From Myxococcales bacterium (GTDB lineage Bacteria; Myxococcota; UBA727; JABDBI01): 64,000 nucleotides of DNA. The translations under genes were made by a program, and so were the position numbers. The notes beneath the pieces were generated by a model. It had not been told where the DNA came from. It was given only the letters and a program-made list of their open reading frames with translations, and ran no database searches. Every line of letters starts with the position of its first letter. Positions within the stretch are counted from its first letter, which is position 1. The DNA lies in the NCBI GenBank assembly GCA_023898405.1, contig CP060221.1, forward strand, positions 4,958-68,957, given 5' to 3'. Of this stretch, positions 2,682 to 42,954 are shown piece by piece.

Positions 2682-3344
2682 TCAGCAAAAATAATTGTGG
2701 AAAGTAATTTCCAGAAATTTTTGATACTCTAAAGCATCTTTAAAATCGTTTTTATAGTCTTGATACCCGTAGTGAGGGTCTAAGAGCAAATCAATTATTT
2801 TTTCAAAACAACTATTGATTTCGCATTTATAATTACCGCTTGAAATTAATTTTTCTAACTCGATTTTCACTTTTTTTCTCCATTTTTGTTTTTTAAATAT
2901 TTTTTCTTGGGCACGAATTTTTTGATTGGCTTTATGTTTAAAACTTTCACTAACTGGATTTGAAAATTGGATTTGAACGGAGCCAAAAGATTGAGATTTA
3001 TAATATTCTTTCTCGCCAACCAGGTCTTCAACAGCTGCTACGTAATTTCTATAGCAGGCAAGAGAATTATGCCCAGTTTGAGTTTTTTGCAATATCATCT
3101 GATCATCGTGCCTAAAAGTTACAATGTGAATTGTGTGCGAAAAGATGACAAACAGCTGATAAGTACCGCTGTCATTTGGCGAACTGGAAAAAAGGAATGT
3201 TCCGTCATTTTGAGTGCTCAGAAGCTGCAAATGCTCTCTTGAAACATTTTTAATATAAGCTTCGTGCTCATGGGCAAGAGTCGAGAATAAATTATTAGAA
3301 AAAATGCCGTTCAAGGCGAAAAAAAAACAAATAATTTTACGCAT
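2682..3344 (-). CDS. hypothetical exported protein (about 220 aa from internal Met MRKIICFFFALNG)
   Basis: ORF 2682..3416; signal-peptide-like segment begins at the internal Met, so start placed at 3344. Confidence 0.4.
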   Translation of the reverse strand: MRKIICFFFALNGIFSNNLFSTLAHEHEAYIKNVSREHLQLLSTQNDGTFLFSSSPNDSGTYQLFVIFSHTIHIVTFRHDDQMILQKTQTGHNSLACYRNYVAAVEDLVGEKEYYKSQSFGSVQIQFSNPVSESFKHKANQKIRAQEKIFKKQKWRKKVKIELEKLISSGNYKCEINSCFEKIIDLLLDPHYGYQDYKNDFKDALEYQKFLEITFHNYFC

Positions 3345-6842: not shown

Positions 6843-8048
6843 TCACGTGTCATCACCGCCTGCGCTGGGATGACAAGGGAGAGCGGTCAAAATCACAACG
6901 CTAATGGTGATATCATCACGGATTCCCGAGAGAAGGTTTTCTTTTTCTTGATCTTCGCGATAAGGATTACTTTCATCTTTCTTTGCTGATGCAATCATCA
7001 ATTGATGAACAATGCTCTCAGCATCTTCTCTTTCATCTAAAAGCTTCTTTGTTTGGGTATAAGCATCGTCATTAGAGATATTGTCCCAAAATCCATCAGA
7101 AGCAATAATAAAAAATTTATTTTGACCTCTAACAAGCGGCACAAATTTAATCTCTGGTTCATAGGTCAGTCCACATTTATGTTTGCCATATCCCAACGCA
7201 CGCGTCATCTCTGACAGGGGACTCTCTTCTTCCCAGTCAACCTTAGTAATTATTTTCTGATCGCTGAGTAGATCTTGGTGAGGGTTGGTCGAAATAGGAA
7301 TAGATTCAGAACGATCAGGATTTTCATTTTCACATAAAAATAATTTTCTACGAACTGATTTATTACCTAGAGAGTCGCGCTTTTTTTGTACAACTTGTGG
7401 CGCTTTTCTATATTTTTCAGGTGGTTCTAAAATTGAATCTAGCTCCTTTTTTGGTTGGCACGAAAATTTTTTAATTCGCTCTTGCTCACTTTCACATTCC
7501 CAATTATGGTCGGCCGTTGCAAAAAAAATATTTTCATCGCCAAGTTCCCCCACCAAAATACGAGAGTCGCCCGTGTGAGCTAAAAAATAGCCTTCTTCAT
7601 TCCTTTCATTGCGAGCAATAATTAAAACTGCAGCAGTAGAGCCAGAAGGTTTACTTGTTCTCTGTGCTCTGTAGCCATTATTGGCGTATTCGAAACTTGT
7701 GACAATGCTTTGCTCTTGAAGTTTAAAATCGGGTTGCAACGCTGTATTTAGGCTGGGATAGATTACATCCTTGGCATATTGCGACATTCCGTAGCCTCTG
7801 TGTCCATCAAACACTCCGAAAAAAGCAAAGGACGCTTTATTAACATTTATAAAACGATCTTCATTAGGACCGCTTTTTCGATTGGTTTGTTGTGTAACTG
7901 TTGCAAAGTCTAGAGAATATTTTTCAAAAATTTTTTTGCAGTTGTCTTCTTCTGGCATCAGATTGCTAGCCAGCAGCAAAGAACTAAAGATAATATTAAA
8001 AAAAAATATCAATCGAAAAAAATTTAAAAAAAATTTTTGCTGTGCCAT
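6843..8048 (-). CDS. PP2C/PPM-family Ser/Thr protein phosphatase with N-terminal signal peptide or membrane anchor and a roughly 100-aa internal insertion
   Basis: PPM motifs FGVFDGHRG, SGSTAAVLII, LAHTGDSRILV, FFIIASDGFWDN, DDITISVV; N-terminus FFRLIFFFNIIFSSLLLASN hydrophobic; ATG start. Confidence 0.75.
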   Translation of the reverse strand: MAQQKFFLNFFRLIFFFNIIFSSLLLASNLMPEEDNCKKIFEKYSLDFATVTQQTNRKSGPNEDRFINVNKASFAFFGVFDGHRGYGMSQYAKDVIYPSLNTALQPDFKLQEQSIVTSFEYANNGYRAQRTSKPSGSTAAVLIIARNERNEEGYFLAHTGDSRILVGELGDENIFFATADHNWECESEQERIKKFSCQPKKELDSILEPPEKYRKAPQVVQKKRDSLGNKSVRRKLFLCENENPDRSESIPISTNPHQDLLSDQKIITKVDWEEESPLSEMTRALGYGKHKCGLTYEPEIKFVPLVRGQNKFFIIASDGFWDNISNDDAYTQTKKLLDEREDAESIVHQLMIASAKKDESNPYREDQEKENLLSGIRDDITISVVILTALPCHPSAGGDDT

Positions 8049-9770: not shown

Positions 9771-9801
9771 CAGAAATCTAGCTCAACAATTTGTACCTGA
9801 A

Positions 9802-15916: not shown

Positions 15917-15924
15917 AAATTCTC

Positions 15925-16440
15925 CTAGGGAAGTAAGCTGTGTACATCCACAGGCTTTTTTTCTCCCATGGCTTCGCCTTTTTCTTTACCTAAAATAGCC
16001 AGACCTGCGACGCGATAATAGTTGTACTCAGGAGCTTTGCCAGGGCCAGAAATAAGCAGGTCTTCTTTTTCATAAACCATATTGTTTCTTTGAAATTCGG
16101 CCATTTCATAATCAGGTGTTAATTGTATAGCGAGCGTAGGGCATGCTTCCTCACACATTCCACAATAAATGCAGCGCGAAAAATTTATGCGAAAAGATTT
16201 AGGAAAGCGTCTTTTGCGATCATCTTCAGCTGCTTCAATAGCAATGCAATCCACAGGACAAACACTCGAACATAGATAGCATGCAACGCAGCGTTCTTCT
16301 CCATCAGGATCGCGCGTTAGTACAATTCGACCACGATAACGAGGAGAAAGCTTAGGTTTTTCTTCCGGATATAGTCGAGTGGTGGGTTTTGTGAAAGTGT
16401 GAGTCAATACCACCCAAATGCTTTTTAATATGCTCAGCAT
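15925..16440 (-). CDS. nuoI: NADH-quinone oxidoreductase subunit I (2x[4Fe-4S] ferredoxin-like)
   Basis: Two CxxCxxCxxxCP motifs: [12 protein letters not shown] and [12 protein letters not shown]. Confidence 0.9.
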
Positions 16441-16451
16441 AAATCCACCAC

Positions 16452-17405
16452 CTACATCAATGCTACTAATGCCGTAAATAATAGATTTACCAGGCTTAGG
16501 GGTAATAAAAATTTCCAGCCAAAACTTATGAGTTGATCGATTCGAGGCCTTGGCAATGCTGCTCGAAGCAAAATAAAGCTTGCTATCAGCGCACAGGTTT
16601 TAAGCATGAACCAAATGAAGGGAGGGAGAATCGGACCCTGCCAACCTCCAAAAAAAAGTATGGTCATCATGGCTGACATTAAAGTTATACCCATATATTC
16701 ACCCACGAAAAACATACCAAATTTTAGACCGCTATATTCTGAGTGAAATCCAGCTATCAATTCGCTTTCTGCTTCTGGTAGATCAAAAGGCAAACGATGA
16801 GTTTCTGCTAACGCAGCAATATAAAAAACAATAAAACCTATGAACTGCCCTAAGATATTCCAGCCAGTGCTCTGAGCTTCGATAATATCGATAAATCTGA
16901 AAGATCCTGTTTTAATGACAACTCCCATTAAAGAGATTCCCATAAAAACCTCGTAGGCTATCATTTGACCAATGCTTCTGATTGATCCCAACAAAGCATA
17001 TTTGTTATTTGATGCCCAACCAGCAAGAGCGATGCTGTAGGTTCCCAAAGAAGAAAGAGCCAGAAAAACTAAAATCCCCACTTCTGAGTCAAAAACTACT
17101 AAGTCTCTCGTCCAGGGGATAAGTGAGAAGCTTGCCAATATCGAGCCAATAATAATCGCAGGAGCAAGAATAAAAACCTTTTTATCGGCAAATGGAGGAA
17201 TCCAATCCTCTTTGAAAAACATTTTGATAGCATCAGCAACAACCTGTAGAAGTCCTAGTGGCCCAACTCTATTGGGACCAAGGCGATCTTGCCAAATTGC
17301 AAGCAGGCGTCGCTCAGCCCAGATAAGAAGGGCCCCCATCGTAAGTGGAATAAGAAGGGCAATGATAGGCGAAGCTATAGCCCACCAAAAATTGAAATCT
17401 ATCAT
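16452..17405 (-). CDS. nuoH: NADH-quinone oxidoreductase subunit H
   Basis: 317-aa polytopic protein with conserved [16 protein letters not shown] segment. Confidence 0.9.
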
Positions 17406-19729
17406 AGAGCGCCTTCCTCTCTATTCTTAGCGTCGATGTGTTTAAAAATCTTTAGACCGCTAATTTCATCGCCAGGATTTTTACGAGCCATAAGCGTGTC
17501 TCTAAATGAAGCTTGTACAGAGTTCCATCGAGGTTCCCACGAGGATGATATCAATGGCAGAGGGATCTTTCTTCGGGCACCTTCCATTGAATACACTAGG
17601 GGAGAGTCGAGATCTGTAAGAGGCTTAGGCTCATGCATGCTTTTATCTGCATTCATGGCGGTGCGACCGCTGTATTCACTTGTCTGTCGCGCAATACCGT
17701 GTCCCATCACTTTAAAGTCAGCCTTGAATAATTTATTAAAAATATCCTCCGGCCAATGAAGTTCGTGAGCTAAGGCAGAACAAAGCATATCATTATTTTC
17801 CCACTGATATTTTTTGTCTAAGAAAGGGAGAAGCATGCGCCAAGGGGACTGGATATGCTGATCATCGGTACTAAAAACGCTAAAATAGCGTTGGAGTCTT
17901 CCTTCCTGACTGATAACCGAACCAGTGCTTTGAGCAAAACTTAAACAGGGAAGCGCAATGTCAGCTTTTTCGACAGTTGCATTGTGCTCGTAATCGATCA
18001 CTATCATGTGTTTGGCTGATGTGATCGCAGCCAATGAGCTCTCATCAAAATGAGAGTACAAATCGTTTTCTAAAATAATAACAACATCGACAGGAGCTTT
18101 AAGCTTAGATAAAGGCTGTGCAGAGAGCAAAGCCAATCCAATACTGTTAACCTGGGGAGCCACTATAGAAAGCTTGGCTTCTTGAGAAAGTGGCTCAAGA
18201 AGCTGTGCAACATTTTTGATCAACACTGGATTGTGGAGCGAAGTTCCGCAGATAATGACAGGCCTTTTGGCTTTTAAGAGGGCTTGTCCTGCTTGTTCTA
18301 TCCAAGAATCTAGCTTAGAGTTGCTCGATTTGTTTTCTAAAAATAATTTTAACTCTAGGAGCAGTTCGTGCAATTTTTCTAAGGGTAACGCGCATGTATC
18401 TTGTGCTATGTCGTCAAGGCCAGTGGTTGTAATGTGAGCACTTAATAAGGGAAACGTCGAATTTCTTACATGATTGCGTACAGCCCCATCATTCCATGAT
18501 GGAATTTTTTGCTCAACCCAAGCTTTTTCTTCCGCTGCACTGATCGCAGCCTGACGTACGCTCAATGCCATCATGGGAGCGCTGTGAGTAATATCCTCGC
18601 CAATAATAATAATAGCATCAGATTCTCTAATGTCTCTGAGAGAAGCAATTTGTTGGGGATAGTGTTTAAGCTGGGCTAGGGCTTCATTTACGCTCAGAGA
18701 AACTGACGAGTTCTCTCCGTCATAGAAATTTTCTGCTCCAACCAGTTGGCGCAGAGCCCAGTTTGATTCGAGCGAGGCTTTAGCACTGCCAATGCCGATG
18801 ATATTGTGTGTGGTTTCCAAAATAGCTTTAATTTTTTCATTCGCCTCACCCACATCAGATGCTTTACCTTGGAGTAGAGCAGTTTTTAGGCGTCTAGGAC
18901 TGTTGATGAATTCGTGACCAAAACGCCCTCGATCACATATAAAATAGCCATTTACATCATGATTATAGCGATTTTGGATACGTCTCAGCTGCCCATAACG
19001 TGCCCCAGGAGAAATATTACATCCCACGCTACAGCGTTGACATATGGATGGAGCTGTTTGTAGATCCCATTTTCGTATGTGATGGCGATGAAATAATTTG
19101 TCGGTAAAAACGCCGGTGGGGCAGACCTCTACAAGATTGCCGCTAAAACCGCTTTCAAGCCTCCCATCCTCATTACGCCCAAAGTAAACGCGTCCACTAT
19201 TGGCAAAAGGGCTTAAATCTGTGCCTCCGGCAATATCGCGATAGTAACGTACGCAACGATAACAGGTTATACACCGGTTCATCTCATGATTGATGTAAGG
19301 ACCAAGGTTTTGATTTTGAAAGGTGCGTTTCTTAAAACGATAATGACGAGAGTTATGACCTGTCATGACCGTCATATCCTGCAAATGGCACTCTCCACCC
19401 TCATCGCACACAGGGCAATCGTGGGGGTGGTTAATCATCATCCACTCGATAACGTGTTTTCTAAAATTGGTACACGTAGGATGGTCGATAGAAAAGCGTG
19501 CACCTTCCTTTAAAGGCGTCATACACGCCATAACGGTACGTCCCTGAGTGTCATTTTCGTCTGCAAACTGTTGAACTGCGCATTGGCGGCATGAACCAAC
19601 AGAGCCTAAAGCCGGATGCCAACAAAAATAAGGTAAGTTGAGGCCTTCTAGTAAAGCAGCCTCTAAAAGATTGCTGTTTGGATCGCATTCATAGGATTTT
19701 TGATCGATAAAAATAGTTGTCATGAACAT
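17402..19729 (-). CDS. nuoG: NADH-quinone oxidoreductase subunit G (775 aa)
   Basis: N-terminal 2Fe-2S/4Fe-4S cysteine clusters CWHPALGSVGSCRQCAV and HPHDCPVCDEGGEC; molybdopterin-like C-terminal region. Confidence 0.9.
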   Translation of the reverse strand: MFMTTIFIDQKSYECDPNSNLLEAALLEGLNLPYFCWHPALGSVGSCRQCAVQQFADENDTQGRTVMACMTPLKEGARFSIDHPTCTNFRKHVIEWMMINHPHDCPVCDEGGECHLQDMTVMTGHNSRHYRFKKRTFQNQNLGPYINHEMNRCITCYRCVRYYRDIAGGTDLSPFANSGRVYFGRNEDGRLESGFSGNLVEVCPTGVFTDKLFHRHHIRKWDLQTAPSICQRCSVGCNISPGARYGQLRRIQNRYNHDVNGYFICDRGRFGHEFINSPRRLKTALLQGKASDVGEANEKIKAILETTHNIIGIGSAKASLESNWALRQLVGAENFYDGENSSVSLSVNEALAQLKHYPQQIASLRDIRESDAIIIIGEDITHSAPMMALSVRQAAISAAEEKAWVEQKIPSWNDGAVRNHVRNSTFPLLSAHITTTGLDDIAQDTCALPLEKLHELLLELKLFLENKSSNSKLDSWIEQAGQALLKAKRPVIICGTSLHNPVLIKNVAQLLEPLSQEAKLSIVAPQVNSIGLALLSAQPLSKLKAPVDVVIILENDLYSHFDESSLAAITSAKHMIVIDYEHNATVEKADIALPCLSFAQSTGSVISQEGRLQRYFSVFSTDDQHIQSPWRMLLPFLDKKYQWENNDMLCSALAHELHWPEDIFNKLFKADFKVMGHGIARQTSEYSGRTAMNADKSMHEPKPLTDLDSPLVYSMEGARRKIPLPLISSSWEPRWNSVQASFRDTLMARKNPGDEISGLKIFKHIDAKNREEGAL

Positions 19730-19731
19730 CC

Positions 19732-20982
19732 TCAGTTGCCATAGGGGCAGCGCTTTTGAGCTATATGTTCCAAAAAATCTTTGCGAAAAAGTTTAAGCCC
19801 AGACCCTAAGGGGGCTGAAGCGCCAGGAGCAAGAGCACAAAACGTGCTTCCTGGTCCCAGTAAACGCGCATGATTTTCTAATATTCCAATATCTGATTCC
19901 TGGCCTTCGCCGCGTTCAATAGCCGATAGTGTCTCATAAACAAAAGATAAGCCTTCTCTGCACGGTGTGCAAAACCCACATGATTCTTGTTTGAAAAATT
20001 TTTCTAGATTCAAAAGCATTCCCACCGGACAGGTGTGGTCATCAAGAATAATCATGGTTCCAGTACCCATTCGAGTTCTTTTTTGAGCCATGGAACTGTA
20101 GTCCATAGGTACATCAAGATATTCTTCCGTTAAAAAATCTGTAGAAGCGCCTCCAGGCAAAAATGCTCTAAGCTTAAGCCCAGCTCTCATCCCTCCGGCG
20201 CAGTTTTCAAGAATTTCACGTCCTAACGTACCCATGGGGAGCTCAAAAGCTCCAGGATAGTTTACTTTTCCACTGACGCCATAGATTTTGGTACCAGCAT
20301 CGATTGCTTTTCCCAAAGTTTTAAACCACGCAGCGCCTTTTCGTAGAATATGAGGAAGATTGCTTACAGTCTCAACATTCTGTACAAGGGTAGGTTTCCC
20401 CCATAATCCACTGACCTGAGGAAAAGGAGGCTTAGCTCGAGGAGTTGCTCTGCGGCCTTCAAGAGCATTCAAAAGCGCCGTTTCTTCGCCACAGATATAT
20501 CGTCCAGCACTCATATGAATAAAAATATCCAGGTTATAAAAAAGATTGGCCTTGTGAGCTTCATGCAAGGCGTGCTCTAAATATTTTTCAGCGGTTTTAT
20601 ATTCGCCTCTTAAAAATATATAGGCGACTTTTGCCCCAATAGCATGTGCAGCGATCATTACACCTTCAATGAGCTGGTGCGGATTACCTTCTAAAAGCCA
20701 ACGATCTTTAAAGGTTCCAGGCTCCATCTCATCAGCATTGACAACCAGATAATGAACGTCATGCTCATCAATCACTGGCGGCACAGCGCTCATCTTGATG
20801 CCAGTGCTAAAACCTGCGCCACCGCGCCCTAAAAGTCCAGCCTCTTTGATGAGACTAATAACCTCACCAGGCTCCATTTTTATTGCATTATTAAGGCCTT
20901 CATATCCATGAGCAGATTGATAATCCTTTAAACTAAGGGGTTGACCATTGGTGTTCATGAGTCCGGTGAGAGGATTCTTCAC
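19732..20982 (-). CDS. nuoF: NADH-quinone oxidoreductase subunit F (NADH/FMN-binding)
   Basis: GLLGRGGAGFSTG motif and C-terminal 4Fe-4S cysteines ESCGFCTPCREG. Confidence 0.9.
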   Translation of the reverse strand: MKNPLTGLMNTNGQPLSLKDYQSAHGYEGLNNAIKMEPGEVISLIKEAGLLGRGGAGFSTGIKMSAVPPVIDEHDVHYLVVNADEMEPGTFKDRWLLEGNPHQLIEGVMIAAHAIGAKVAYIFLRGEYKTAEKYLEHALHEAHKANLFYNLDIFIHMSAGRYICGEETALLNALEGRRATPRAKPPFPQVSGLWGKPTLVQNVETVSNLPHILRKGAAWFKTLGKAIDAGTKIYGVSGKVNYPGAFELPMGTLGREILENCAGGMRAGLKLRAFLPGGASTDFLTEEYLDVPMDYSSMAQKRTRMGTGTMIILDDHTCPVGMLLNLEKFFKQESCGFCTPCREGLSFVYETLSAIERGEGQESDIGILENHARLLGPGSTFCALAPGASAPLGSGLKLFRKDFLEHIAQKRCPYGN

Positions 20983-21460
20983 GGTCTTTCTCCTCGTTTT
21001 TTTTTGTTTTTAGAATGGCGCTTATTTTTTCAGGTGTGAGATGGGTATGAAGCTCATCATTCACCATCATCGCTGGACCTTTATCGCATGTCCCCAGGCA
21101 TTGAGCGGGCAAGAGTGTATACTCATTATTTTTGCACGTTTCGCCCCAGTCAATACCAAGTTCTTTTTTTATGCACTGACGAACTTTTTCATAGCCCATG
21201 ATCCAGCAGCTTACGCTGTCGCACAGACGTATCACTTTTTTGCCAACAGGTTTGCGATAAATAAGATTATAAAAAGTGGCGATACCATCGAGTTCGGTGG
21301 CTGACATTCCAATATAATCCGCAACGTCTCTTAAGGCCTCATCGCTGACATAGCTCCGGTGGCGTTGTACCACCAACAAAGCATCTAAACACGCACTTTT
21401 GCGCACGGGAAACTTAGCTATTTCAAGATCTATTTCAGCTATTTCAAGCTTACTAAGCAC
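20933..21460 (-). CDS. nuoE: NADH-quinone oxidoreductase subunit E (2Fe-2S thioredoxin-like)
   Basis: Cysteine pattern LCDSVSC...CLGTCDKGP; overlaps nuoF by 50 bp. Confidence 0.85.
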   Translation of the reverse strand: MLSKLEIAEIDLEIAKFPVRKSACLDALLVVQRHRSYVSDEALRDVADYIGMSATELDGIATFYNLIYRKPVGKKVIRLCDSVSCWIMGYEKVRQCIKKELGIDWGETCKNNEYTLLPAQCLGTCDKGPAMMVNDELHTHLTPEKISAILKTKKNEEKDREESSHRTHEHQWSTP

Positions 21461-21471
21461 AATATTCTCCC

Positions 21472-23211
21472 CTAGCGATCCAGGTCAGCAAGAACAAAGT
21501 CCACGCTTCCCAAAATGGCCATTAAGTCTGGAATAGTCGTTCCTTTGGCAAGCAAAGGAAGCATCTGTAAGTGAGCGAAAGATGGAGTCCGAATACGAGT
21601 GCGGTAGGATCGATTGCTGCCGTCACTGATCAAATAGTAGCTATTGATACCTTTGGTCGCTTCAATGCCAAAAAAAGATTCACCGGCAGGCATCACAGGT
21701 CCCCATGAAACATTCAAAAAATGCTGAATCATTGTTTCAATATTTGCCAGAGTTTCTGCTTTGTTTGGCGGGGTTGTCAGGGGATGATTCGATTTAGTTG
21801 GACCATTAGGCATTTTTTTTACGCATTGCTCGATAATACGCAAACTCTGGCGCATCTCTTCAATGCGCACCAAACCTCTATCGTAGCAATCGCCATTTTT
21901 AGCGGTAGGAATATCGAAATTAAATTGTTCGTATCCCGAGTAAGGGCGTTTTTTTCGTAAATCCCATTCAAGGCCAGTTGCTCTTAGTCCAGCCCCGCTT
22001 ATTCCCCATTCTATCGCTTCTGATAAAGAGTAAGCTCCAATTCCAATAGTGCGTGCCTTAAAAATGCTATTTTCCATGACCAATCGATCATATTCTTTAA
22101 GCTTGCTTGGGAAATTTTTTGTAAAATCTAAGACTGCATTTTCCCATCCTTGCGGCAAGTCGTGCGCAACACCGCCAATACGAAACCAGCTTGGATGCAT
22201 ACGGCCACCAGTTATCCCCTCGACAATGCGAAATATTTTTTCACGTTCATTAAACATGTAAAAAATTGGAGAGAGAGAGCCTATATCCTGAGCAAAAGTG
22301 CCGTACCAAACTAAGTGACTGGCAATGCGAAAAAGTTCGCACATCATGACTCTGATAGTTTGAGCTTTTGGAGGAACATCTATGCCAGCCAGTTGTTCAA
22401 CAGCCAACAGATAAGCAAGATTATTCATAACCCCACCGAGATAGTCGATTCTATCAGTGTAAGGGATATAGCTATGCCAATTTTGTCGTTCGCCCATTTT
22501 TTCAGCGCCACGATGATGAAAGCCTATATCCAGCACTGAATCAACAATTTCTTCGCCATCAAGCTGCAAAATAATGCGTAAGACTCCATGAGTGCCAGGA
22601 TGCTGAGGACCTAAGTTTAAAAAGATATATTCATGATCATCATCTTTTCTTTTAAGTCCCCATTCTTCAGGTTTAAATTCTAATAGATCTTGCTCTGCTT
22701 GTTCTTGATCTTCATCGAGGTGGTAAAGACCCATTTCTGTTGCGCGAGCAGGGTGCACTTTGCGTAAAGGGTGACCTTTCCAAGAACGAGGCATGAGAAG
22801 GCGCATAAGGTGAGGGTGACCTATAAAGCTGACACCGAACATGTCAAAAATTTCTCGTTCGTACCAGTTAGCATTTTTGAAGAGCTCAGTCACGCTTTCT
22901 ACGCTGAGTTGGCTATCCTTAAGCGCAACCTTAAGACGAATATCTTCGTTTCGTGCCAACGACAAAAGATGATAGACCAAAGTAACATCCGAATTGGGTT
23001 GAGCATCACAGTGTTCTCGTTCAGTTTCATCGATAGCGGTCAGATCATATAACATAGAAAAAGGTTGAGGCACATTTTTTAGGTAGCTAAGAATAGTTTT
23101 AATTTTTGAGCCTTCGATCCAAACTGTAGGGATGAGATCATTGCTCCTTTGCTGTCCCTTGATTGCCTCGGGAAACTTATTTTTCAGGCTCGAAACAATA
23201 GCTTCGTTCAT
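21472..23211 (-). CDS. nuoCD: fused NADH-quinone oxidoreductase subunits C and D (579 aa)
   Basis: N-terminal 30-kDa NuoC-like region ([14 protein letters not shown]) continuous with a 49-kDa NuoD-like region ending ...VLADLDR. Confidence 0.9.
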
Positions 23212-23221
23212 GATTCACTCG

Positions 23222-23845
23222 CTACATGTGGTTGGGTTCATCGTAGGTTTGGACTGCTTTTCTTGTCTCGCCTTTAATTTTACGCATAGAAAGAGGAGTG
23301 GGTTTACTTACGTCTTGTGAACCTCCCAACCAGGAAATAGGGCGCCTTTCCTTACCAATGGATTCACGCAAGAGCAAAATACCCTCCATAAATGCTTCGG
23401 GCCGAGGAGGACAACCTGAAATGTAGAGATCAACAGGTAAAATTTTATCGACTCCTTGAACAACGCTATAGATATCGTACATTCCGCCCGAGTTTGCGCA
23501 TGATCCCATGGATATCACCCATTTTGGTTCCATCATTTGTTCATAAAGCCGTTTTACTATGGGAGCCATTTTTCTAAACACGGTTCCGGCTACCACCATG
23601 ACGTCAGCTTCTCGAGGAGTTCCTCTTATAACTTCCGAACCAAATCGCGCAACATCATATGTGCTGGTAAGACTGGTTGCCATTTCGACGTAGCAACAAC
23701 TTAAGCCAAAATTAAAGGGCCAAACAGAATTTTTTCTTCCCCATGAGATCAGATCTTGAAGACGAGAAAATAAAAAAGTCTGAGCCTCATTCGGGCCAAG
23801 CTGCCCTTTAAGCCATTGTTCGGGGGTTTTAGTAATTAGAGTCAT
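23222..23845 (-). CDS. nuoB: NADH-quinone oxidoreductase subunit B (20-kDa, 4Fe-4S N2)
   Basis: [21 protein letters not shown] and [10 protein letters not shown]...CPP motifs. Start placed at internal Met MTLITK, because the longer ORF has an unlikely Cys/Arg-rich leader and would overlap nuoA. Confidence 0.85.
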
Positions 23846-24213
23846 GATCGAGCACCACCTGCCACGCGAGGACGAGGACCAAATCTCAATACGCCTTTGG
23901 CTATGACATAATAAAGAGAAAGCAGCAACATGCTGATGAATACAGAAATTTCTATAAATCCTAACCAACCGACGTCGACAACAGAAGTGGCCCACAAATA
24001 AATGAAAGCTGATTCAAGATCGAAAACAACAAATAAAATTGCTACCAAAAAGTATTGTGCAAAGAAGTGTACACGCGCAGTGCCCGCAGATTTAATACCG
24101 CCTTCATAGGGAGTTCGTTTTCGTGGATTGGTGCTACGTTCTCCTAAAAAATAAGATGAGAGCATTACCAAGACAACAGTTATGACGCCAAAACAATAAA
24201 TCGCCAAAGACAT
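23842..24213 (-). CDS. nuoA: NADH-quinone oxidoreductase subunit A
   Basis: 123-aa three-TM protein; first gene of the operon; ATGA overlap with nuoB. Confidence 0.85.
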
Positions 24214-25785: not shown

Positions 25786-26847
25786 TTGAGCCATGGAGAA
25801 TTTATGGAAATAGCAAGCAGGCGGCGCGAACAAGAAGTGTGGCAAGCGTGTGATGACTTGTGGGCATTACATGGAAGTATGGATGGTATTACCGGCGAAG
25901 CTATTCGCGAGCGCTTGTTGGGGATGGGAAAGAGTCGTGGCAGTCCCAATGAAATCTATAAATATCGTAAAACATGGACAGTGAGCCGAAAAATTGGGCG
26001 AGAAAATACTGGTGACTGTAGTGCTAATTCTGATCCAATTTCGCGCGCAGTTCGTATGGTGCATGAAAAAATTCAGAGCGAAACTCAAGAAGAAATTGAA
26101 AAGATAAAACTAGAATTTAATGAAGAATTACTCACAAAAGACAAAGAAATAGAACAGGGCAAGAAAAATATAGAGGCTCTTGTTCATGAAATGACATCGC
26201 TACAAAGCGAGTTTTCCCAGCTGAGTCAACAACATCAAGCACTAAATGAACAATATCAACGAGAAATAAAGACAAGAAAAGATCTTGAACATGATTTTTT
26301 AATTTTCAAATCTCAGCATGCACAAGAAATAAGCTCCCACGAGCGAATAATGGCCGAATTTTACAAAAATCAAAAGTACACTTTGGAGCAGACCAAAAAT
26401 GCATTTGATAATGCTCAAAATACTCTACAAGCACAACTGATACGCGCCAATGAAGAAAAAAAACAGCTGGGACAAGAATATTCTGAAAGTCTCAATGCTG
26501 TAAAAATTGAGAAATATAATCAAGATGTAAAACTAGGCGAACTAGAACATCAGCTTACATATCTGAAAGATACGCTTGAAATTTCCCAACAAAAAATAAT
26601 TGAACAAGATACAAAATTTAAGACGGTATTGGAAGAGAGCCTCAAACTTCATAAAGAAAGAGATGCATTGCGTGAAAAATTAGCTTTTGTACAAAACGAG
26701 CTTTTTATTGTTCATAATCAACTAAGTGAACTGAAAATAGAAATTGTCAAACGTGATGTTACGATAGCTCGTTTGCGAGCACTGCAGGCACATAGTAGAG
26801 GAAAGACCAATGGAGCATCTAGAGAAAGGCCAGCTGCAAAAACTTAG
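25786..26847 (+). CDS. KfrA-like protein: N-terminal KfrA_N-type DNA-binding domain followed by a long coiled coil
   Basis: N-terminus EVWQACDDLWALHG...TGEAIRERLLGMGKSRGSPNEIYKYRKTW resembles plasmid KfrA N-domain; residues from about 100 to 340 are heptad-rich with E/K/Q/L. Confidence 0.55.
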   Translation: MSHGEFMEIASRRREQEVWQACDDLWALHGSMDGITGEAIRERLLGMGKSRGSPNEIYKYRKTWTVSRKIGRENTGDCSANSDPISRAVRMVHEKIQSETQEEIEKIKLEFNEELLTKDKEIEQGKKNIEALVHEMTSLQSEFSQLSQQHQALNEQYQREIKTRKDLEHDFLIFKSQHAQEISSHERIMAEFYKNQKYTLEQTKNAFDNAQNTLQAQLIRANEEKKQLGQEYSESLNAVKIEKYNQDVKLGELEHQLTYLKDTLEISQQKIIEQDTKFKTVLEESLKLHKERDALREKLAFVQNELFIVHNQLSELKIEIVKRDVTIARLRALQAHSRGKTNGASRERPAAKT

Positions 26848-27937
26848 GTCGAATCTTATCCAAAATGAAAAGTCTGATTGCCGCATTAGAGCTCGCAACG
26901 ATGTTGAAGCATTTGAACGATGGCTCGACGAGTATTTTGAAAAACCCACCACCTACCGTAGTTATAAGAAAGAAGGAGAAAGGTTTTTGGTGTGGTGTGC
27001 GCTTGAAAGAAACTGCACGCTCGAGACGCTCAGCAGAGACGATGTTGAAGCCTACATTTCATTTTTAAAAAACCCTCAACCCTTTGAAAAATGGTGTGGT
27101 CCTAAGGGAGGGCGTTCTCATAAGGGTATTTGGAAACCATTTAGTGGTCCACTAGGTGAGAGTGCTATTCGCTGTGCGCTTGCTATTCTCAACTCTATGA
27201 TGGGTTATTTGGTGGATGCAGGTTATGTTTCTTTTAATGCTTTTGCCCTCATACGAAGAAAAAGTAGGCTTAAAGAAAAATTGGTCAGTAATCGCTTTTC
27301 TATTGAGGAGCGAATCTTAAGCCAAGAAGAATGGCGGGTGTTTCTTCAAACGATGCGCGATTATCCGGAAAATAATTCTCATGAAGTGAAAAAAAAACAA
27401 AGGCTAATTTTTTTAGTTACAATTCTTTATTTTTTGGGTTTACGGATCGATGAATTAGCCCAATCAACATGGGCAAATTTTCGTCAGCTCAATGGTAAAT
27501 GGTGGTTTTTTGTACGAGGGAAAGGCGATAAGCTGGGCAAAATTCCTATCAATCGAAATCTTTGGCAGGCAGTTATAAAATTCAGGCTGAGCCTTGCTAT
27601 GTCACCCATACCCCACGAAGAAGATTATCTGCCTATAATTCCCTCATTAAGCTCGCCACAAAAAACACTCACGACCAGGCAAATGAGCAATTTGCTTAAA
27701 GAACTAGCACTCAAAGCGGCTTTGCAATTGAAGGGAAACCCACATAGCGCCAAAAAAATGGAAAAATTTTCCCCGCACTGGTTAAGACATTTATCGGCAT
27801 CGAGGCAGGATTTGGCTGGTGTTTCATTTACCCACATTAAAGAAAACCTTCGGCACTCAAACGAACAAACGACCAGACACTATGTCCACGCTTTTGATGA
27901 TAAGCGCCATGAAGAAATGGAAAAATTTAATTTTTAA
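26810..27937 (+). CDS. tyrosine site-specific recombinase (phage-integrase family)
   Basis: N-terminal SAM-like domain; catalytic box LGLRIDEL (R), KGDKLGKIPIN (K), HWLRHLSAS (HxxR), LRHSNEQTTRHYVH (Tyr nucleophile). Confidence 0.8.
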   Translation: MEHLEKGQLQKLRSNLIQNEKSDCRIRARNDVEAFERWLDEYFEKPTTYRSYKKEGERFLVWCALERNCTLETLSRDDVEAYISFLKNPQPFEKWCGPKGGRSHKGIWKPFSGPLGESAIRCALAILNSMMGYLVDAGYVSFNAFALIRRKSRLKEKLVSNRFSIEERILSQEEWRVFLQTMRDYPENNSHEVKKKQRLIFLVTILYFLGLRIDELAQSTWANFRQLNGKWWFFVRGKGDKLGKIPINRNLWQAVIKFRLSLAMSPIPHEEDYLPIIPSLSSPQKTLTTRQMSNLLKELALKAALQLKGNPHSAKKMEKFSPHWLRHLSASRQDLAGVSFTHIKENLRHSNEQTTRHYVHAFDDKRHEEMEKFNF

Positions 27938-27996: not shown

Positions 27997-28929
27997 ATGA
28001 AAAGAATTTTATCCTATTTAACTTTATGTGTAGCGCTGTCACCGGTTCTGCATGCTCAAGAAGAGGCAGTCTCAAAATTAGAAAAACCTTATTTGGGTGC
28101 AGAAATCTCTGTGAATCAAGCGGTGGCTCCCGGTGCAATTTCAAGTCGCTTTGGTGAAAGTCGATCATTAACTAGCGATTTACTTTTGAAACCTACACTG
28201 AAGAGCAAAGAATTTTGGGGCGACCGTTACCTTAAAGCCGATTTAGAATTTTATTCTATTTTTGAATGGATGCCCAAAAATACCGCTAAAGCAGGAGAAA
28301 AACTGAGTTTTAACGACGTGAAATTTAGAACACAGCTGAAAAATGCCGTAAATCACCAAGCATCAGGAATTTCCTATGCTCCTGGGGTTGAAGTGGAAAT
28401 ACCCGCATCAAAAACTTCTTCAGTCAGCAATCGTATCATTGGGCTTGGACTGAATTCTGCTTTGTCATGGAGCAAATGGGGACTAACTCTAAGTTATAAA
28501 CCAACAGCAGTGGCATATATTCACTCGCTTCCCTATAAAAGTTCCGCCTGCTCACCTGATAGTTCCGCCGAAGATAAATTAAGTGGAAATCAATGTCGTG
28601 TCGATGGACGGCAGACAATGCTGATGTTGAAGAATCAATTATCTGCTGAATATACTTTAGGGGCAAACGTTTTTACGCTGGCCTTCAAAACCTATCACAA
28701 TTTTCTCAGACCGAATGAAGAAGCACAAAAGTACACAGAATCAACTTTAGCCTATCTTGAATATGGCTATAAATTACCCACAAGTTTTGAGACGATACTA
28801 AAGTTGGGAATTACCAGCTACAATCCCGCTTATGATCCTGCCAATGGTTTTAAAGTGCCCTTCGTATCTACTAATGTCGGTGCATCAAACTTCACCAATA
28901 TCTATGCGGGGGTGGATATAACTTTGTAA
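27997..28929 (+). CDS. hypothetical outer-membrane (beta-barrel-like) protein with signal peptide
   Basis: Signal MKRILSYLTLCVALSPVLHAQ; alternating amphipathic segments; aromatic-rich C-terminal strands. Confidence 0.4.
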   Translation: MKRILSYLTLCVALSPVLHAQEEAVSKLEKPYLGAEISVNQAVAPGAISSRFGESRSLTSDLLLKPTLKSKEFWGDRYLKADLEFYSIFEWMPKNTAKAGEKLSFNDVKFRTQLKNAVNHQASGISYAPGVEVEIPASKTSSVSNRIIGLGLNSALSWSKWGLTLSYKPTAVAYIHSLPYKSSACSPDSSAEDKLSGNQCRVDGRQTMLMLKNQLSAEYTLGANVFTLAFKTYHNFLRPNEEAQKYTESTLAYLEYGYKLPTSFETILKLGITSYNPAYDPANGFKVPFVSTNVGASNFTNIYAGVDITL

Positions 28930-29129
28930 AAAAGATTCTACGTCGTTACTGAGCCAGAGCCTATAAGAATTTTTAACAATGGTATTTAAAATTCCATATA
29001 GGCTCCTGGGCACCGGTGTGCTCTTCATTATATTTTCATGCATAGTCATTGACCTGTATTGAAATAATAGTTATGCCAATCCGATAAATCACTAGTATTG
29101 TATGTTTTAGCTAATGTTGGAGTGTATTT

Positions 29130-30428
29130 ATGATTGTAAGGATAATTGTTTTCTTTTTATGTCGCAGTTTGTTTTCGTTGAACATGTTTGAGCAAGGTGA
29201 AGAGATTCAGAGAAATGAGCTCATAAGCGAAATTATTATTCCGGATACTGAAAACGATGAGAATAGAGCTCAAGAAATTAATCTAGAACAAAATCTAGCC
29301 GATGCAGGTATCGAGGCTGAAAACGAAAATTTAAGAAATATCATCACTTCAAGGAGGATTGTTCAAGAAAATAGATCTGAAGTTGGAACTGTTGAACAAA
29401 TACTTCCAGAAGTAAGTGCAATGGGTGACTTTAATAATGATAATGCCAAAAATAACGAAAAGACGTCAGAAAATACCAACGAAAAGATAGTAAGGATTTT
29501 TCGCGTTAACCAAGGCTCTAATCATGGTGAAGTGTTTGGTTCACGAATTTTTATGGGAAAAGGTAAGATGTTGGGTCTTCCCAATGAAATTTGGGCGGAA
29601 ATTGCTTCCTATCTAGATCTAAAAGACCTAGCAAATTTCAGACTGGTTTGCCATGACACCAATGATGTGGTTTCGTTCGCAGGCAAGCTGCAGGATTCCT
29701 GGCTGCATTCGAATAGGTTTTATGAACATTTGGCTTACCTAAGAAAGTTGACCGGTTTTATAAAAATAAGTGAAAATTTAGCGGTGTCACATGTGGATAA
29801 AAAGTTTGTGAAAATTTGGTATAGATCAGATGATAGTTCTTCTTATTCGCTGTTAGAAACAATAGATCTCAGTGAAGCCGTCAAGGTGGGCTCGTCTGAC
29901 AGAATTAAACCTTTGGAGGGTAGCAATTTCTATTTATGTTCTTATGAGCACAACGACGATACCTTCGGTGTGTCCACCGATGATGAAGTAGGTGCGTATG
30001 TTTTTAAGCTTGAGGAAAAAGGATTTACATGTGCCTATGTGGCAGATGAAAAATTGGAGAACCTTAAGATTAACTGCTCTAGTGCGGATATACTTTCCTT
30101 TGCTTTGATGATTAATCTAGGGCCAGAGAAGGTGTGTTGCAAGGAAGATATGCTGCTCATTTTTGAATCCTTAGTGGAAAAGTATCAGCCAACAAGTAAA
30201 AAAGCCCAAGAAGTATTGTTGTCACTAATTATAGCGGCAGAATTAAACAAAGAAGTTGCTGACCGAAAGCTATTACTATCCGCGTGTCAGGCCCTACATG
30301 AAGTAGGCGAAAAACGCTGTAGTGAAAATAAATCAATTAAAGGGTTGCTGTCTGATGTCACTAAAGAAGACTTTCTCGACTGCAATTCAAAAATAAAAAA
30401 ACAACACAACACATGCGCATTGTTGTAA
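29130..30428 (+). CDS. F-box domain protein (eukaryote-like; candidate host-targeting effector)
   Basis: aa 148-178, LGLPNEIWAEIASYLDLKDLANFRLVCHDTN, matches the F-box consensus LPxEIxxxIxxxLxxxDLxxxxxVC; GGAG RBS 9 nt upstream of ATG; acidic low-complexity N-terminal region. Confidence 0.7.
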   Translation: MIVRIIVFFLCRSLFSLNMFEQGEEIQRNELISEIIIPDTENDENRAQEINLEQNLADAGIEAENENLRNIITSRRIVQENRSEVGTVEQILPEVSAMGDFNNDNAKNNEKTSENTNEKIVRIFRVNQGSNHGEVFGSRIFMGKGKMLGLPNEIWAEIASYLDLKDLANFRLVCHDTNDVVSFAGKLQDSWLHSNRFYEHLAYLRKLTGFIKISENLAVSHVDKKFVKIWYRSDDSSSYSLLETIDLSEAVKVGSSDRIKPLEGSNFYLCSYEHNDDTFGVSTDDEVGAYVFKLEEKGFTCAYVADEKLENLKINCSSADILSFALMINLGPEKVCCKEDMLLIFESLVEKYQPTSKKAQEVLLSLIIAAELNKEVADRKLLLSACQALHEVGEKRCSENKSIKGLLSDVTKEDFLDCNSKIKKQHNTCALL

Positions 30429-30751
30429 GCAGCACTTATCAAGCTAGTGCCCTTATATCAAGCTAGGTCAAGCATCAATTGCTCTGTCATGTCGATATTG
30501 AATGTCCCATGTGGATAACGTGGGCATAAATTAGAGGAGACAGAGCCCGTTTTTCACTCGGTAGTGCAAAATTTAGCTGTATCACTCAGCTATTCCCAAA
30601 AACAATTCACACAGTGTTATACCAAAAAGTTTTGAAATCAAAATCATCGCTTTTATCATTGCACACTCTATAAATCTGCTCCTTTTTTATTTTTTCAAAC
30701 AACCATTAGAAGTATTAAACGATAACTCCACCAAAGTATCGGAGTAGTTTT

Positions 30752-31129
30752 ATGCAGTATTTATTTTTTATTTTGTTTTTATTTGCCCAATCTCTTTTTG
30801 CTATTGAAAGTATAAAAATTGACTTTGAAGATTATGCTACCGAAATTTTTTTTACTCACGATGCACAAGACTCATTTAGAGGCAGCATAGTAAATAAAAC
30901 GGATATCTTTGGAGTATGTGAGGGTAATTTTTTCTATGATCTTAAAAATGGAAAGCTTGAGCTTACATATAATGATGATGAGTGTCTGTCGCAAAACCTC
31001 ACTCTTTTTTTCGACTTTATCTTGTTAAAGAAAATTACCAACGGCATTAGAACGCGCGTATTTTATAAGCGTGGGGATGACAGACACACCCTAAAACAGG
31101 CCTACATGCAAATTTCTATGTTGTTGTGA
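30752..31129 (+). CDS. small hypothetical exported protein (125 aa)
   Basis: Signal peptide MQYLFFILFLFAQSLFA; 3' end overlaps acs stop by 14 bp (convergent). Confidence 0.35.
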   Translation: MQYLFFILFLFAQSLFAIESIKIDFEDYATEIFFTHDAQDSFRGSIVNKTDIFGVCEGNFFYDLKNGKLELTYNDDECLSQNLTLFFDFILLKKITNGIRTRVFYKRGDDRHTLKQAYMQISMLL

Positions 31130-33149: not shown

Positions 33150-34412
33150 TTAATCTAGGCTTACAGCTTCGATGGCTTTTACCCTTTCTAATGTAGTGGG
33201 GTGAGAGTAATGATACGCGCTATACCAAGGATGTGGTGTAAGGTTGCCTAAGTTTTCCTTGGTGAGTTTTACCAATGCATCGGCGAGATGCTTTTTATCC
33301 CGAGTTGTGTGAACCGAAAACTCATCTGCTTCAAATTCATTGTGTCGAGAAATTTTTGTAAAAATCGGTGAAATAGGAAACATGAATACCGATGAGAACA
33401 AAGCAAAGAGTACAAGTCCTACATGAATGCTTGGCTGAAAGGCACCAAGTGCAGTGAAAAAAGGTGGCCATTGAATGCAAAGGGAGAGCACGTAAAAGAG
33501 TGCCAGCATAATAACCGAAGATAACACCAAACTTTTTTGGATATGTTTTTTGACGTTATGTCCCATTTCATGAGCAATTACGCCAACAATTTCATCTTCG
33601 GAATGTTTTTCTATGAGCGTATCAAACAAAACAATCCGTCTCATTGAGCCAAGGCCTGCAAAAAAAGCATTAGAGTGCGAGGAACGTTTAGAACCATCTA
33701 TGGTAAAAATTCCAGCCATTTTAAAATTAACTTTTTTCGCCAAGTCCTCGATTCGTGTCTTTAAGCTTCCATCAGCAAGAGGGCTAAACTTATTAAAAAT
33801 AGGAGCTAGAAACACGGGATAAATGGCTGCCGTGAAAAGTTGAAAACCCATCACTAATGCAAAGCCAAAAATCCACCATTGAGGACCACTCTCACCAATA
33901 ATCCAGAGCAAAGCAGCAATAAGTGGAACTCCAAATAATAATCCTAAAAGCGCACCTTTAATTTGATCGAGTACAAAGGTTTTAAAATTCATTCGGTTAA
34001 AACCAAATTTTTCTTCTAAAACGAACTGGTAAAAATATGATTGAGGGATTCCAAAAACAAAAAATACGCCACCTACGGCAAAGGGATAAATAACTCCTCG
34101 CCAAAAAGTATTGCTGAAATAAGCAGAAAGCCAGGTGTCGAGATGTCCAAAAAAACCACTCAAAATCAAAGTAAAAACAAAAGCAGTTTTTAATATGAGA
34201 GTGAAAATCTTAAAATTAGTTTTTGCTTTGGTGTAGTCGATGGATTTTTTGTAGTCAGTTTCAGAATATATCCCCTTAAATAAATCGGGTACGTGGGATT
34301 TATGTTGATCGACGTGGCGTATATTAAGAAGGTCGAGACCAATTTCAACCAATAAATACGCTAAGTAAAAAATCAAAAATACAACAAAAAACCAATTATC
34401 AAAAATGTTCAT
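33150..34412 (-). CDS. Ste24-like CAAX prenyl protease, M48 family zinc metalloprotease (multi-TM)
   Basis: HEMGH (HExxH) zinc motif plus downstream NEFEADEFS; about 7 TM helices N-terminal; 420 aa, consistent with M48A. Confidence 0.75.
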   Translation of the reverse strand: MNIFDNWFFVVFLIFYLAYLLVEIGLDLLNIRHVDQHKSHVPDLFKGIYSETDYKKSIDYTKAKTNFKIFTLILKTAFVFTLILSGFFGHLDTWLSAYFSNTFWRGVIYPFAVGGVFFVFGIPQSYFYQFVLEEKFGFNRMNFKTFVLDQIKGALLGLLFGVPLIAALLWIIGESGPQWWIFGFALVMGFQLFTAAIYPVFLAPIFNKFSPLADGSLKTRIEDLAKKVNFKMAGIFTIDGSKRSSHSNAFFAGLGSMRRIVLFDTLIEKHSEDEIVGVIAHEMGHNVKKHIQKSLVLSSVIMLALFYVLSLCIQWPPFFTALGAFQPSIHVGLVLFALFSSVFMFPISPIFTKISRHNEFEADEFSVHTTRDKKHLADALVKLTKENLGNLTPHPWYSAYHYSHPTTLERVKAIEAVSLD

Positions 34413-42021: not shown

Positions 42022-42954
42022 ATGTCCAAAGAAATTTTACTGAAAGAATATGCCACTTCACTCGGCTTTGATGATATGGGAATCGCTTCTGTGGATGGTC
42101 CGCTGCCCTTTATTCAAGAAGTTAAGCAAGCTTCGGTTGACGAAAGGTTTGGCCCACTCGATTATCTCTACCGAACACTTCCTCAAAGACTAGATGTGCG
42201 CTCATTTTTCCCAATAGCTCAGAGTGTTATAGTTGTTATAAAAAATTATTACACTGGTGATCACCCAACTTCTTTACAGGCTCAAGCAAAAATTGCTCGT
42301 TATGCCTGGGGGCACGATTATCACCAGTGGTTTAAAAAAAGACTTAAAAACATCTCAAATTATTTACAAAAAGAATATGGAGCACAAAGCTGGATATTTA
42401 ACGATACAGGTCCATTTTTAGAACGCTCGTGGGCTTTGAAAGCAGGATTAGGTTTTATTGGCAAAAGTGCCATGTTTATTCATCGGGAATTTGGAACGTG
42501 GACGTTTATAGGTGGTGTGGCCACTGACTTAAACTTACAAGCTGATGAGGCGTATACAGGGCCAAATTGTGGAACGTGCACTCGCTGCATTGATGCCTGC
42601 CCAACAAAAGCTATAATAGCCCCTCATACTATCGAAGCAAAAAAATGCATATCTACCTGGACCATTGAACGAACGCTTCATAGTGAGTCTATAGCGCTTG
42701 CGCCAAGAAATCATGAATGGGCTTTTGGTTGTGATGTATGCCAGGAAGTTTGTCCTTGGAATAAATTCGAGAAGTTTAGCCCCGAGCCTCGATTTCAGCC
42801 AGTACCTGGAAGGGTTTTCCTCAATCAAGAAACTTTTAATCAGGATCTTAAGGGGTCACCGCTTTACAGGACAAAAAAAGTTGGACTGAGAGTCAATTTA
42901 ATTCGTATTCAAAAAACTCTGGCATCGATGAATCACCGCGATCATCAGTATTAG
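42022..42954 (+). CDS. queG: epoxyqueuosine reductase (tRNA Q34 biosynthesis), 4Fe-4S
   Basis: Ferredoxin-like cysteines CGTCTRCIDACP and CDVCQEVCPWN. Confidence 0.75.
   Translation: MSKEILLKEYATSLGFDDMGIASVDGPLPFIQEVKQASVDERFGPLDYLYRTLPQRLDVRSFFPIAQSVIVVIKNYYTGDHPTSLQAQAKIARYAWGHDYHQWFKKRLKNISNYLQKEYGAQSWIFNDTGPFLERSWALKAGLGFIGKSAMFIHREFGTWTFIGGVATDLNLQADEAYTGPNCGTCTRCIDACPTKAIIAPHTIEAKKCISTWTIERTLHSESIALAPRNHEWAFGCDVCQEVCPWNKFEKFSPEPRFQPVPGRVFLNQETFNQDLKGSPLYRTKKVGLRVNLIRIQKTLASMNHRDHQY

Follow-up and report, generated by a model that had tools for sequence, protein, structure and literature searches.

The F-box gene and its locus

We analyzed a 64,000-nt stretch of contig CP060221.1 (assembly GCA_023898405.1, positions 4,958 to 68,957), which derives from a Myxococcales bacterium and is called the window below, and in it a gene whose 432-aa product combines a central F-box with a C-terminal CaaX box (Table 1). 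The product is identical to USN50875, 'MAG: F-box protein [Myxococcales bacterium]', in NCBI, a record that already carries the name F-box protein and that is encoded on a 2,515,055-bp contig. The DNA of the same locus is present in a second assembly, GCA_020430645.1, with 100% identity over 3984 nt and bacterial genes on both sides. The gene begins with an ATG preceded by a GGAG ribosome-binding site, and this start codon is supported because the N-terminal leader that it defines is kept in two homologues, P0002 and P0007.

Identification of the F-box

Two Pfam families match the protein at aa 148-181 with scores above their gathering cut-offs: PF00646 with 33.2 bits (E 4.1e-08, cut-off 20.5) and PF12937, F-box-like, with 29.2 bits (E 7.9e-07, cut-off 24.3). 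The PF00646 match stops at profile position 35 of 43, and NCBIfam gave no match for the protein. A preliminary description of this DNA, made by reading the sequence, had placed an F-box at residues 148-178 and proposed a hidden Markov model search of just this kind; the segment that it pointed to, LGLPNEIWAEIASYLDLKDLANFRLVCHDTN, does start at residue 148, and both models recover it. The same description had seen no recognisable repeats downstream of the F-box, and our searches agree: neither Pfam nor NCBIfam has a match in the region C-terminal to the F-box, and neither an ankyrin-repeat (Ank) family at E<=1 nor leucine-rich repeats (LRR) turned up, so that no known domain or repeat was matched there.

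The motif LGLPNEIWAEIASYLDLKDLANFRLVC has the L-P-x-E-[IL] with which an F-box starts and also its hydrophobic core at the proper spacing (I/L ... L ... L ... V-C), and residues L148, L150, P151, N152, E153, I158, L162, L164, D166 and C174 are invariant across the family alignment. We compared this segment with proteins in the PDB by means of a profile that combined it with five F-box segments of bacterial relatives (E <= 1). Eukaryotic F-box proteins account for 19 of the 20 matches, each aligned at its own F-box; they include FBXO31 (E 2.9e-04), KDM2B, FBXW7, FBXO4, beta-TrCP, FBXL17, TIR1, FBH1 and Skp2, and the alignments extend over the same F-box positions as the invariant residues. The profile search alone succeeded, as single-sequence phmmer against the PDB gave no F-box match with either the whole protein or the F-box segment. 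Among the bacterial relatives, the F-box was also detected in P0007, P0005 and P0004, and in P0002 it scored slightly under the cut-off. Both AlphaFold2 (AF2) runs place helices at residues ~152-159, 164-173 and 178-192, at a predicted local distance difference test (pLDDT) below 50. By sequence, the segment at aa 148-181 is a bona fide F-box.

A C-terminal CaaX box

The C-terminus of the protein, ...KIKKQHNTCALL*, consists of NSKIKKQHNT followed by the CaaX box C429-A-L-L (nt 30414-30425) and the stop codon, which runs through 30428. Three lysines, K421, K423 and K424, sit 5-8 residues upstream of the CaaX box. With Leu at the X position, CALL is, as predicted from the motif, a signal of the geranylgeranyltransferase-I type. 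The homologues P0002 and P0007 both end in CSIS*, a CaaX box of the farnesyl type, and CSIS is kept between these two paralogues while 6 of the 11 preceding residues differ (KKFKNSLS vs KGCNKMQS). A CaaX-like ending occurs in none of the 315 other open reading frames (ORFs) of at least 150 aa, out of 319 such ORFs in 324 kb of fetched DNA.

A Ste24-type 'CAAX prenyl protease' is encoded ~3 kb from the F-box gene (33150-34412, minus strand; Peptidase_M48_N 167 bits, M48 139 bits). We considered a functional link between this protease and the CaaX protein and rejected it, given that the protease is kept beside metG in relatives and has homologues in several phyla; its proximity to the CaaX gene is probably a coincidence.

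The leader and the regions around the F-box

The N-terminal leader reaches a maximum Kyte-Doolittle hydrophobicity over 10 aa of 2.93, compared with at most 1.52 in 16 cytoplasmic housekeeping proteins, and it aligns with the leader of P0002 and P0007, MLLFFSIFFSLSVFSSNINLF. Its n-region contains R4 and its h-region is broken by R12; the candidate cleavage motif is L14-F-S16/L, with a possible signal-peptidase site after S16.

The acidic region between the leader and the F-box is probably disordered. It contains the best-kept block outside the F-box: residues 23-80 are ~47% identical to P0002 residues 158-217 (counted from the alignment; 45.9% by tblastn with aa 23-81), and the block at aa 33-78 is kept although the organisms carrying the F-box protein and P0002 differ greatly in guanine-plus-cytosine (GC) content. 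This block might serve as a motif for targeting or for binding a chaperone or the host. Downstream of the F-box, the beta-rich region at aa 196-315 shows weak similarity to P0005 and P0002 and no Pfam match, and we regard it as the candidate substrate-binding part of the protein; the helical region that follows (aa 316-418) is likewise without a Pfam match.

Homologues and divergence between paralogues

The family was searched for exhaustively with HMMER in 1.84 billion representative sequences and with a profile in a database of ~5.8 billion protein clusters; a word-index search recovered the query itself alone. The exhaustive search gave 6 matches, among which P0002 is the one clear homologue (E 1.5e-08) and P0004 and P0005 are F-box-only or partial relatives; P0003 and P0006 were rejected as repeat-protein noise. 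The profile search contributed only P0007. Across both searches, P0002 (670 aa) and P0007 (719 aa) are thus the only full-length homologues.

P0002 and P0007 are tandem paralogues on a 14-kb bacterial contig from a wastewater metagenome (L002), whose GC content ranges from ~25% to 35% in 1-kb windows and which also carries ABC-transporter and pentose-phosphate genes. The duplicated unit also includes the 3'-terminal 45 codons of the ABC-transporter gene upstream. Over their N-terminal 275 aa the two paralogues are 99% identical, with a ratio of nonsynonymous to synonymous substitution rates (dN/dS) of 0.12; from the F-box onward, identity is 75-85% and dN/dS is about 0.75-0.8. This post-F-box divergence fits, as far as the alignment goes, a recent duplication followed by rapid change of a target-binding part. 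The sample from which the contig comes, IMG 3300056599, is mentioned in a paper on pilot plants for nutrient removal (PMC10949500). Our literature searches on the clade and the accessions found no description of the organism or of the F-box protein.

Genomic setting

The window is bacterial chromosome, with acs, an M48/Ste24-type protease gene, metG, tilS, ftsH, der, rnc, queG and the gene for EF-G (fusA). We infer an NADH-dehydrogenase-like operon at 10380-24213 from gene order and one precomputed Pfam match, and the short ORFs after EF-G are probably ribosomal protein genes. Between the F-box gene and its upstream neighbor, a 310-aa protein without a Pfam match, lie a hairpin and a terminator-like stem, which suggest that the F-box gene is a transcription unit of its own.

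The locus can be compared directly with that of a syntenic relative, L003, whose M48 protease is 85% identical. The order there is metG, M48, acs, 125-aa homologue, 310-aa homologue, recombinase, KfrA-like and major facilitator superfamily (MFS) gene, which is the order in the window minus the F-box gene, and the two genes that flank the F-box gene in the window, 1.8 kb apart there, are spaced by 5 bp in L003. In a more distant relative of the clade, L019, as in L003, the recombinase and the KfrA_N-like gene are kept in place and the F-box gene is absent; the recombinase is 73% identical in L003 and 55% in L019, and the KfrA_N-like protein 52% and 41%. The KfrA_N-like and recombinase genes are, by this synteny, conserved genes of the clade that do not travel with the F-box gene. 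Judged from these alignments, the genomes differ here by the presence or absence of one gene, the F-box gene, between two conserved neighbors. On the few taxa compared, its acquisition by this lineage would be a more parsimonious explanation than its exact removal from L003.

The preliminary description had placed the gene in a mobile-derived island next to a recombinase. The tyrosine recombinase is indeed present, 1.2 kb upstream, but the island is not borne out: the recombinase and KfrA_N-like genes are syntenic in relatives without the F-box gene, and the F-box gene has the codon usage of its surroundings (GC 0.375, GC content at third codon positions (GC3) 0.356, codon log-likelihood -1.077, all within the range of 28 other window genes). 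No meaningful flanking repeats, insertion-sequence ends or target-site duplication were found around 28930-30751, where the flanks are unique, and no tRNA gene adjoins the F-box locus. We also considered an integron cassette and rejected this idea, since recombinase and cargo point in the same direction, the integron integrase score is 18 bits vs 265, and no attC-like site was found. Among the NCBIfam recombinase families, the best scores are far under all cut-offs.

The genes between the recombinase and acs vary within the clade: the interval encodes 150 aa in L019 and holds two genes in L003 and three in the window. This interval may be a variable slot, in which no att or attC sites were found. 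In a third relative, L011 (M48 protease 69% identical), the gene that follows M48 is not acs; it encodes a 466-aa leader-bearing Asn/Lys-rich protein (11386-12786) without a Pfam match, and the region downstream of M48 is therefore variable within the clade. At the far end of the window, a Tn5/IS4-type transposase gene (61952-63355, minus strand; Tnp_DNA_bind 60 bits, DDE_Tnp_1 32 bits) directly follows a tRNA-Met gene (61766-61842, plus strand), the only tRNA gene in the window; the transposase product had no exact record in the contig collection.

Eukaryote-type neighbors and lifestyle

Within ~40 kb of the same genome we found genes for an otubain-like protein, two ankyrin-repeat proteins, a protein-tyrosine-phosphatase-like (PTP-like) phytase, an SH2-like protein and a PP2C phosphatase. 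Part of this set lies in 9.9 kb directly upstream of the window, obtained from the same organism as a contig (L020) that is 99.97% identical over a 6.4-kb overlap. Its positions 1-9858 encode the otubain-like peptidase C65 (31.3 bits vs 24.3), the two ankyrin-repeat proteins (156 and 59 bits) and the PTP-like phytase (78 bits). The SH2-like protein, in the window itself, is borderline: it has an additional DUF7145 match, and SHIP2 SH2 domains come out best in the PDB (E 0.15 and 0.63). Its FLVR motif, which reads GTFLFSSS, has another residue in place of the Arg that binds phosphotyrosine. Most other known bacterial SH2 domains are from Legionella. In L019, a deubiquitinase gene of the USP/UCH type adjoins the same MFS/KfrA-like/recombinase/acs block.

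All nine eukaryote-type proteins examined have a Sec- or lipoprotein-type leader, with hydrophobicities of 1.9-2.9 (at most 1.52 in the 16 cytoplasmic housekeeping proteins). Positions 1-9858 of L020 and 1-8100 of the window together form a stretch of ~18 kb, with a GC content of 0.34-0.39 over the window part, which also holds several unknown proteins and nearly all of whose products carry Sec- or lipoprotein-type leaders. From its gene content, this stretch looks like an effector cluster. Elsewhere in the window, a Ser/Thr protein kinase (42893-43831, minus strand; Pkinase 103 bits) has no leader; eukaryote-type Ser/Thr kinases are common in Myxococcota, and this one is probably unrelated to host interaction.

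The genome measures 2.5 Mb, and a relative identified through EF-G sits on a 2.29-Mb contig; genomes of cultured Myxococcota are several-fold larger. Relatives by EF-G fall into one large clade of metagenome-assembled genomes (MAGs) from uncultured organisms, labelled Myxococcales, Myxococcota, Myxococcaceae or Deltaproteobacteria. The M48 protease also matches MAGs that bear the name of the candidate phylum UBA10199, with 55% and 44% identity, and the deep placement of the organism is for this reason uncertain.

Table 1. Features of the F-box/CaaX gene, its product and its surroundings. Nucleotide positions are those of the window unless a contig is named.
Feature	Position	Strand	Basis
F-box/CaaX gene	29130..30428	+	ATG start, 432 aa
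GGAG ribosome-binding site	29119..29122	+	read from sequence; 7 nt before ATG
Sec-type hydrophobic leader MIVRIIVFFLCRSLFSLN	aa 1-18, nt 29130..29183	+	hydrophobicity, alignment with P0002/P0007
Acidic Asn/Glu-rich region	aa 19-147, nt 29184..29570	+	isoelectric point 4.56, 25 D+E, 18 N
Best-kept block outside F-box, IIPDTENDENRAQEINLEQNLADAGIEAENENLRNIITSRRI	aa 33-78, nt 29226-29363	+	no known domain matched
F-box	aa 148-181, nt 29571..29672	+	Pfam PF00646 and PF12937, PDB profile matches
Beta-rich region, no known domain	aa 196-315 (approximate), nt 29715..30074	+	nine strands, low-confidence AF2 model
Helical region, no known domain	aa 316-418, nt 30075..30383	+	helices in both low-confidence AF2 models
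Polybasic patch and CaaX, NSKIKKQHNTCALL	aa 419-432, nt 30384..30425	+	read from sequence
Hairpin (20-nt arms) and terminator-like stem with T-run	28957..29023	+	consensus matches only
Upstream neighbor, 310-aa signal-peptide protein	27997..28929	+	50% identical to L003 13841-14773
Downstream neighbor, 125-aa secreted protein	30752..31129	+	conserved in L003
Tyrosine recombinase	26810..27937	+	Pfam; 1.2 kb upstream of F-box gene
KfrA_N-like gene and tyrosine recombinase, overlapping pair	25786..27937	+	Pfam; synteny in L003, L019
Leader-bearing SH2-like protein, 220 aa (borderline)	2682..3344	-	PF00017 20.6 bits vs cut-off 21
Leader-bearing eukaryote-type PP2C phosphatase	6843..8048	-	PF00481 98 bits
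USP/UCH deubiquitinase, 423 aa, lipoprotein-like leader	L019 732-2003		PF00443 152 bits
Tandem F-box paralogues	L002 3301-5460 and 6228-8240

A candidate host-prenylated effector

Because no SCF ligases and no CaaX protein prenyltransferases are known from bacteria, the F-box and the CaaX box point to the cytosol of a eukaryotic cell. We favor, as the fairly probable reading of the sequence evidence, that the gene encodes an exported effector that is prenylated by its host and recruits Skp1/SCF in the cytosol of that eukaryotic host, probably a protist. The preliminary description had also taken the protein for a translocated effector. That part is strengthened by the CaaX box, the putative export leader, the eukaryote-type neighbors and the USP of the clade; on the route of delivery, the Sec-type leader argues against a substrate of a type IV secretion system (T4SS) in the manner of Legionella.

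The proposed mechanism would run as follows. The leader would carry the protein through the Sec pathway, from where it might reach the host cytosol through a type II secretion system, in vesicles or, should the bacterium be a resident of that cytosol, by direct exposure. Host geranylgeranyltransferase-I would then prenylate Cys429, after which -ALL would be removed and the new C-terminus methylated, and the lipid together with the K421/K423/K424 patch would pin the protein to a host membrane. There the F-box would bind host Skp1 and nucleate an SCF (Skp1-Cul1-Rbx1) ligase, and the post-F-box domain (aa ~196-410), which diverges fast between the paralogues, would pick the host proteins for ubiquitination.

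Several observations weigh against this effector reading. The structural models lend it little: pLDDT is only 42 in the single-sequence AF2 run and 34 in the run with a 4-sequence alignment, and a Foldseek search of the PDB with the pLDDT-42 model gave nothing at E <= 0.001, with a template modeling (TM) score of about 0.1. The helix-3 Trp (C-[KR]-x-W) is absent from the F-box, which has VCHDTND instead; this Trp is common in F-boxes, not obligatory. The family has three members from two organisms, which leaves little for conservation statistics, the two CSIS paralogues do not count as independent cases, and the N-terminal dN/dS of 0.12 derives from 9 substitutions. A cleavable Sec leader is atypical, as known F-box effectors are substrates of T4SS or type III secretion systems (T3SS), and no secretion system was seen within the ~74 kb of genome read. 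Finally, the organism is known from metagenomes only.

The same F-box and CaaX evidence would also suit a decoy that sequesters Skp1 or another host protein at the membrane, with the downstream region serving as spacer or scaffold. Such a role would agree with the lack of substrate-binding repeats (LRR, WD40, Kelch, ANK) after the F-box and with the near-neutral evolution of the downstream region between the paralogues (dN/dS about 0.8). We nevertheless regard a decoy as unlikely: the three proteins, which come from two distant organisms, all keep an intact stretch of ~235 residues predicted to be beta-rich and helical, a length beyond the needs of a spacer, and the bacterial F-box proteins tested so far assemble active SCF complexes (PMC2916131, PMC7830128).

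A different view confines the protein to the bacterium, placing it in the periplasm or envelope with a function that is bacterial alone; the F-box-like helices would be a generic interaction module, and the CaaX-like end would have no function. The leader predicts no more than passage through the inner membrane, the flanking genes encode secreted or outer-membrane-like proteins of unknown function, no T3SS or T4SS is seen in the DNA read and the helix-3 Trp is missing, all of which this view accommodates. It accounts poorly for an F-box that scores above curated thresholds and retrieves eukaryotic F-box proteins in 19 of 20 PDB profile matches, for a CaaX box that the only full-length homologues retain and 315 other ORFs lack, and for the same type of leader on proteins that have no target in bacteria (otubain-like, ankyrin, SH2-like, PTP-phytase and USP); we hold it to be quite improbable. 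An artefact or dead DNA, whether a chimera with eukaryotic DNA produced in assembly or a piece of a eukaryotic gene captured recently and without function, is scarcely credible even though the organism is known solely as MAGs and the gene is missing at the syntenic locus of the closest relative retrieved, since a second, 100% identical assembly has bacterial genes on either side, the 432 codons run uninterrupted in DNA of roughly 38% GC behind a GGAG ribosome-binding site, GC, GC3 and codon usage match the genome, and a bacterial homologue, whose contig carries ABC-transporter and pentose-phosphate genes, has the leader and acidic block as well.

The effector reading can be extended, more tentatively, to the lifestyle of the whole clade. 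A plausible if still conjectural picture is that a small-genome (~2.3-2.5 Mb), Myxococcota-affiliated clade, widespread and uncultured, lives in or on eukaryotic cells, probably freshwater or wastewater protists, and deploys an arsenal of Sec-leader proteins (F-box-CaaX, otubain-like, USP, ankyrin, SH2-like, PP2C and PTP-phytase) whose delivery would lie outside the classical T3SS/T4SS format. The geranylgeranyl-anchored F-box protein would, on this picture, have arisen independently of Legionella AnkB and human FBXL2 and would have a new substrate-binding fold.

Bacterial F-box proteins are a known way to hijack host ubiquitination, and the pairing of an F-box with a CaaX box has so far been characterized essentially in AnkB. 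If the effector reading is true, the present protein would be a clean case of convergent mimicry, in which an unrelated protein combines another type of lipid with a new downstream domain and a Sec-type leader. It would mark a small-genome, Myxococcota-like clade as host-associated, add to the bacterial phyla known to manipulate the eukaryotic ubiquitin and prenylation systems, and supply a new candidate substrate-recognition domain. It would also raise the question of how Sec-exported effectors reach the host cytosol.

Comparison with known systems

The use of host CaaX machinery by bacterial proteins has precedents. Salmonella SifA is a prenylated effector that uses it. The Legionella Pel proteins also use host CaaX machinery for membrane targeting (PMC13081727, PMC4951486). 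They and SifA share CaaX-based membrane targeting with the present protein but lack an F-box, and they are T4SS or T3SS substrates.

In amoeba symbionts (Parachlamydiaceae and Amoebophilus asiaticus), F-box proteins have expanded together with ubiquitin-system and ankyrin proteins by lineage-specific gain (PMC4209131, PMC8831229). The tandem duplication on the wastewater contig and the otubain-like, ankyrin and USP genes fit this pattern of expansion, so that the likeness is one of ecology and of paralogue dynamics. The differences are that there is no detectable homology, that the present family comprises three full-length relatives in total, that the downstream domain is another one, that a CaaX tail is present and that the bacterium is Myxococcota-like.

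A eukaryotic parallel is also known. Human FBXL2 and FBXL20 combine an F-box, LRR and a CaaX box and are geranylgeranylated; FBXL2, which ends in CVIL, is a membrane-anchored SCF substrate receptor. An F-box together with a C-terminal CaaX box in which X = L is the architecture that the bacterial protein appears to imitate, although it has none of the leucine-rich repeats of FBXL2 and carries a putative bacterial export leader.

Among bacterial proteins, a close counterpart is AnkB of Legionella pneumophila (Lpg2144/LegAU13). Host enzymes farnesylate its CaaX box, 169-CVLC, which tethers AnkB to the vacuole membrane (PMC2916131); there AnkB assembles an SCF ligase and polyubiquitinates host proteins (PMC2916131, PMC5506055). 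Both are bacterial proteins that pair an F-box with a C-terminal CaaX box, a pairing that in the present case is known from the sequence. Outside the F-box no relation was found, and AnkB chains are not among the PDB matches at E<=1. The F-box is N-terminal in the 172-aa AnkB and central here (aa 148-181 of 432), and the ankyrin repeats of AnkB are absent (no Ank family match at E<=1). The CaaX box here is of the geranylgeranyl type (X = L) and is accompanied by a polybasic patch. AnkB is delivered by Dot/Icm, whereas the present protein has a Sec-type leader, and the two bacteria belong to different phyla. The resemblance to AnkB and FBXL2 thus appears to be one of logic, not of ancestry.

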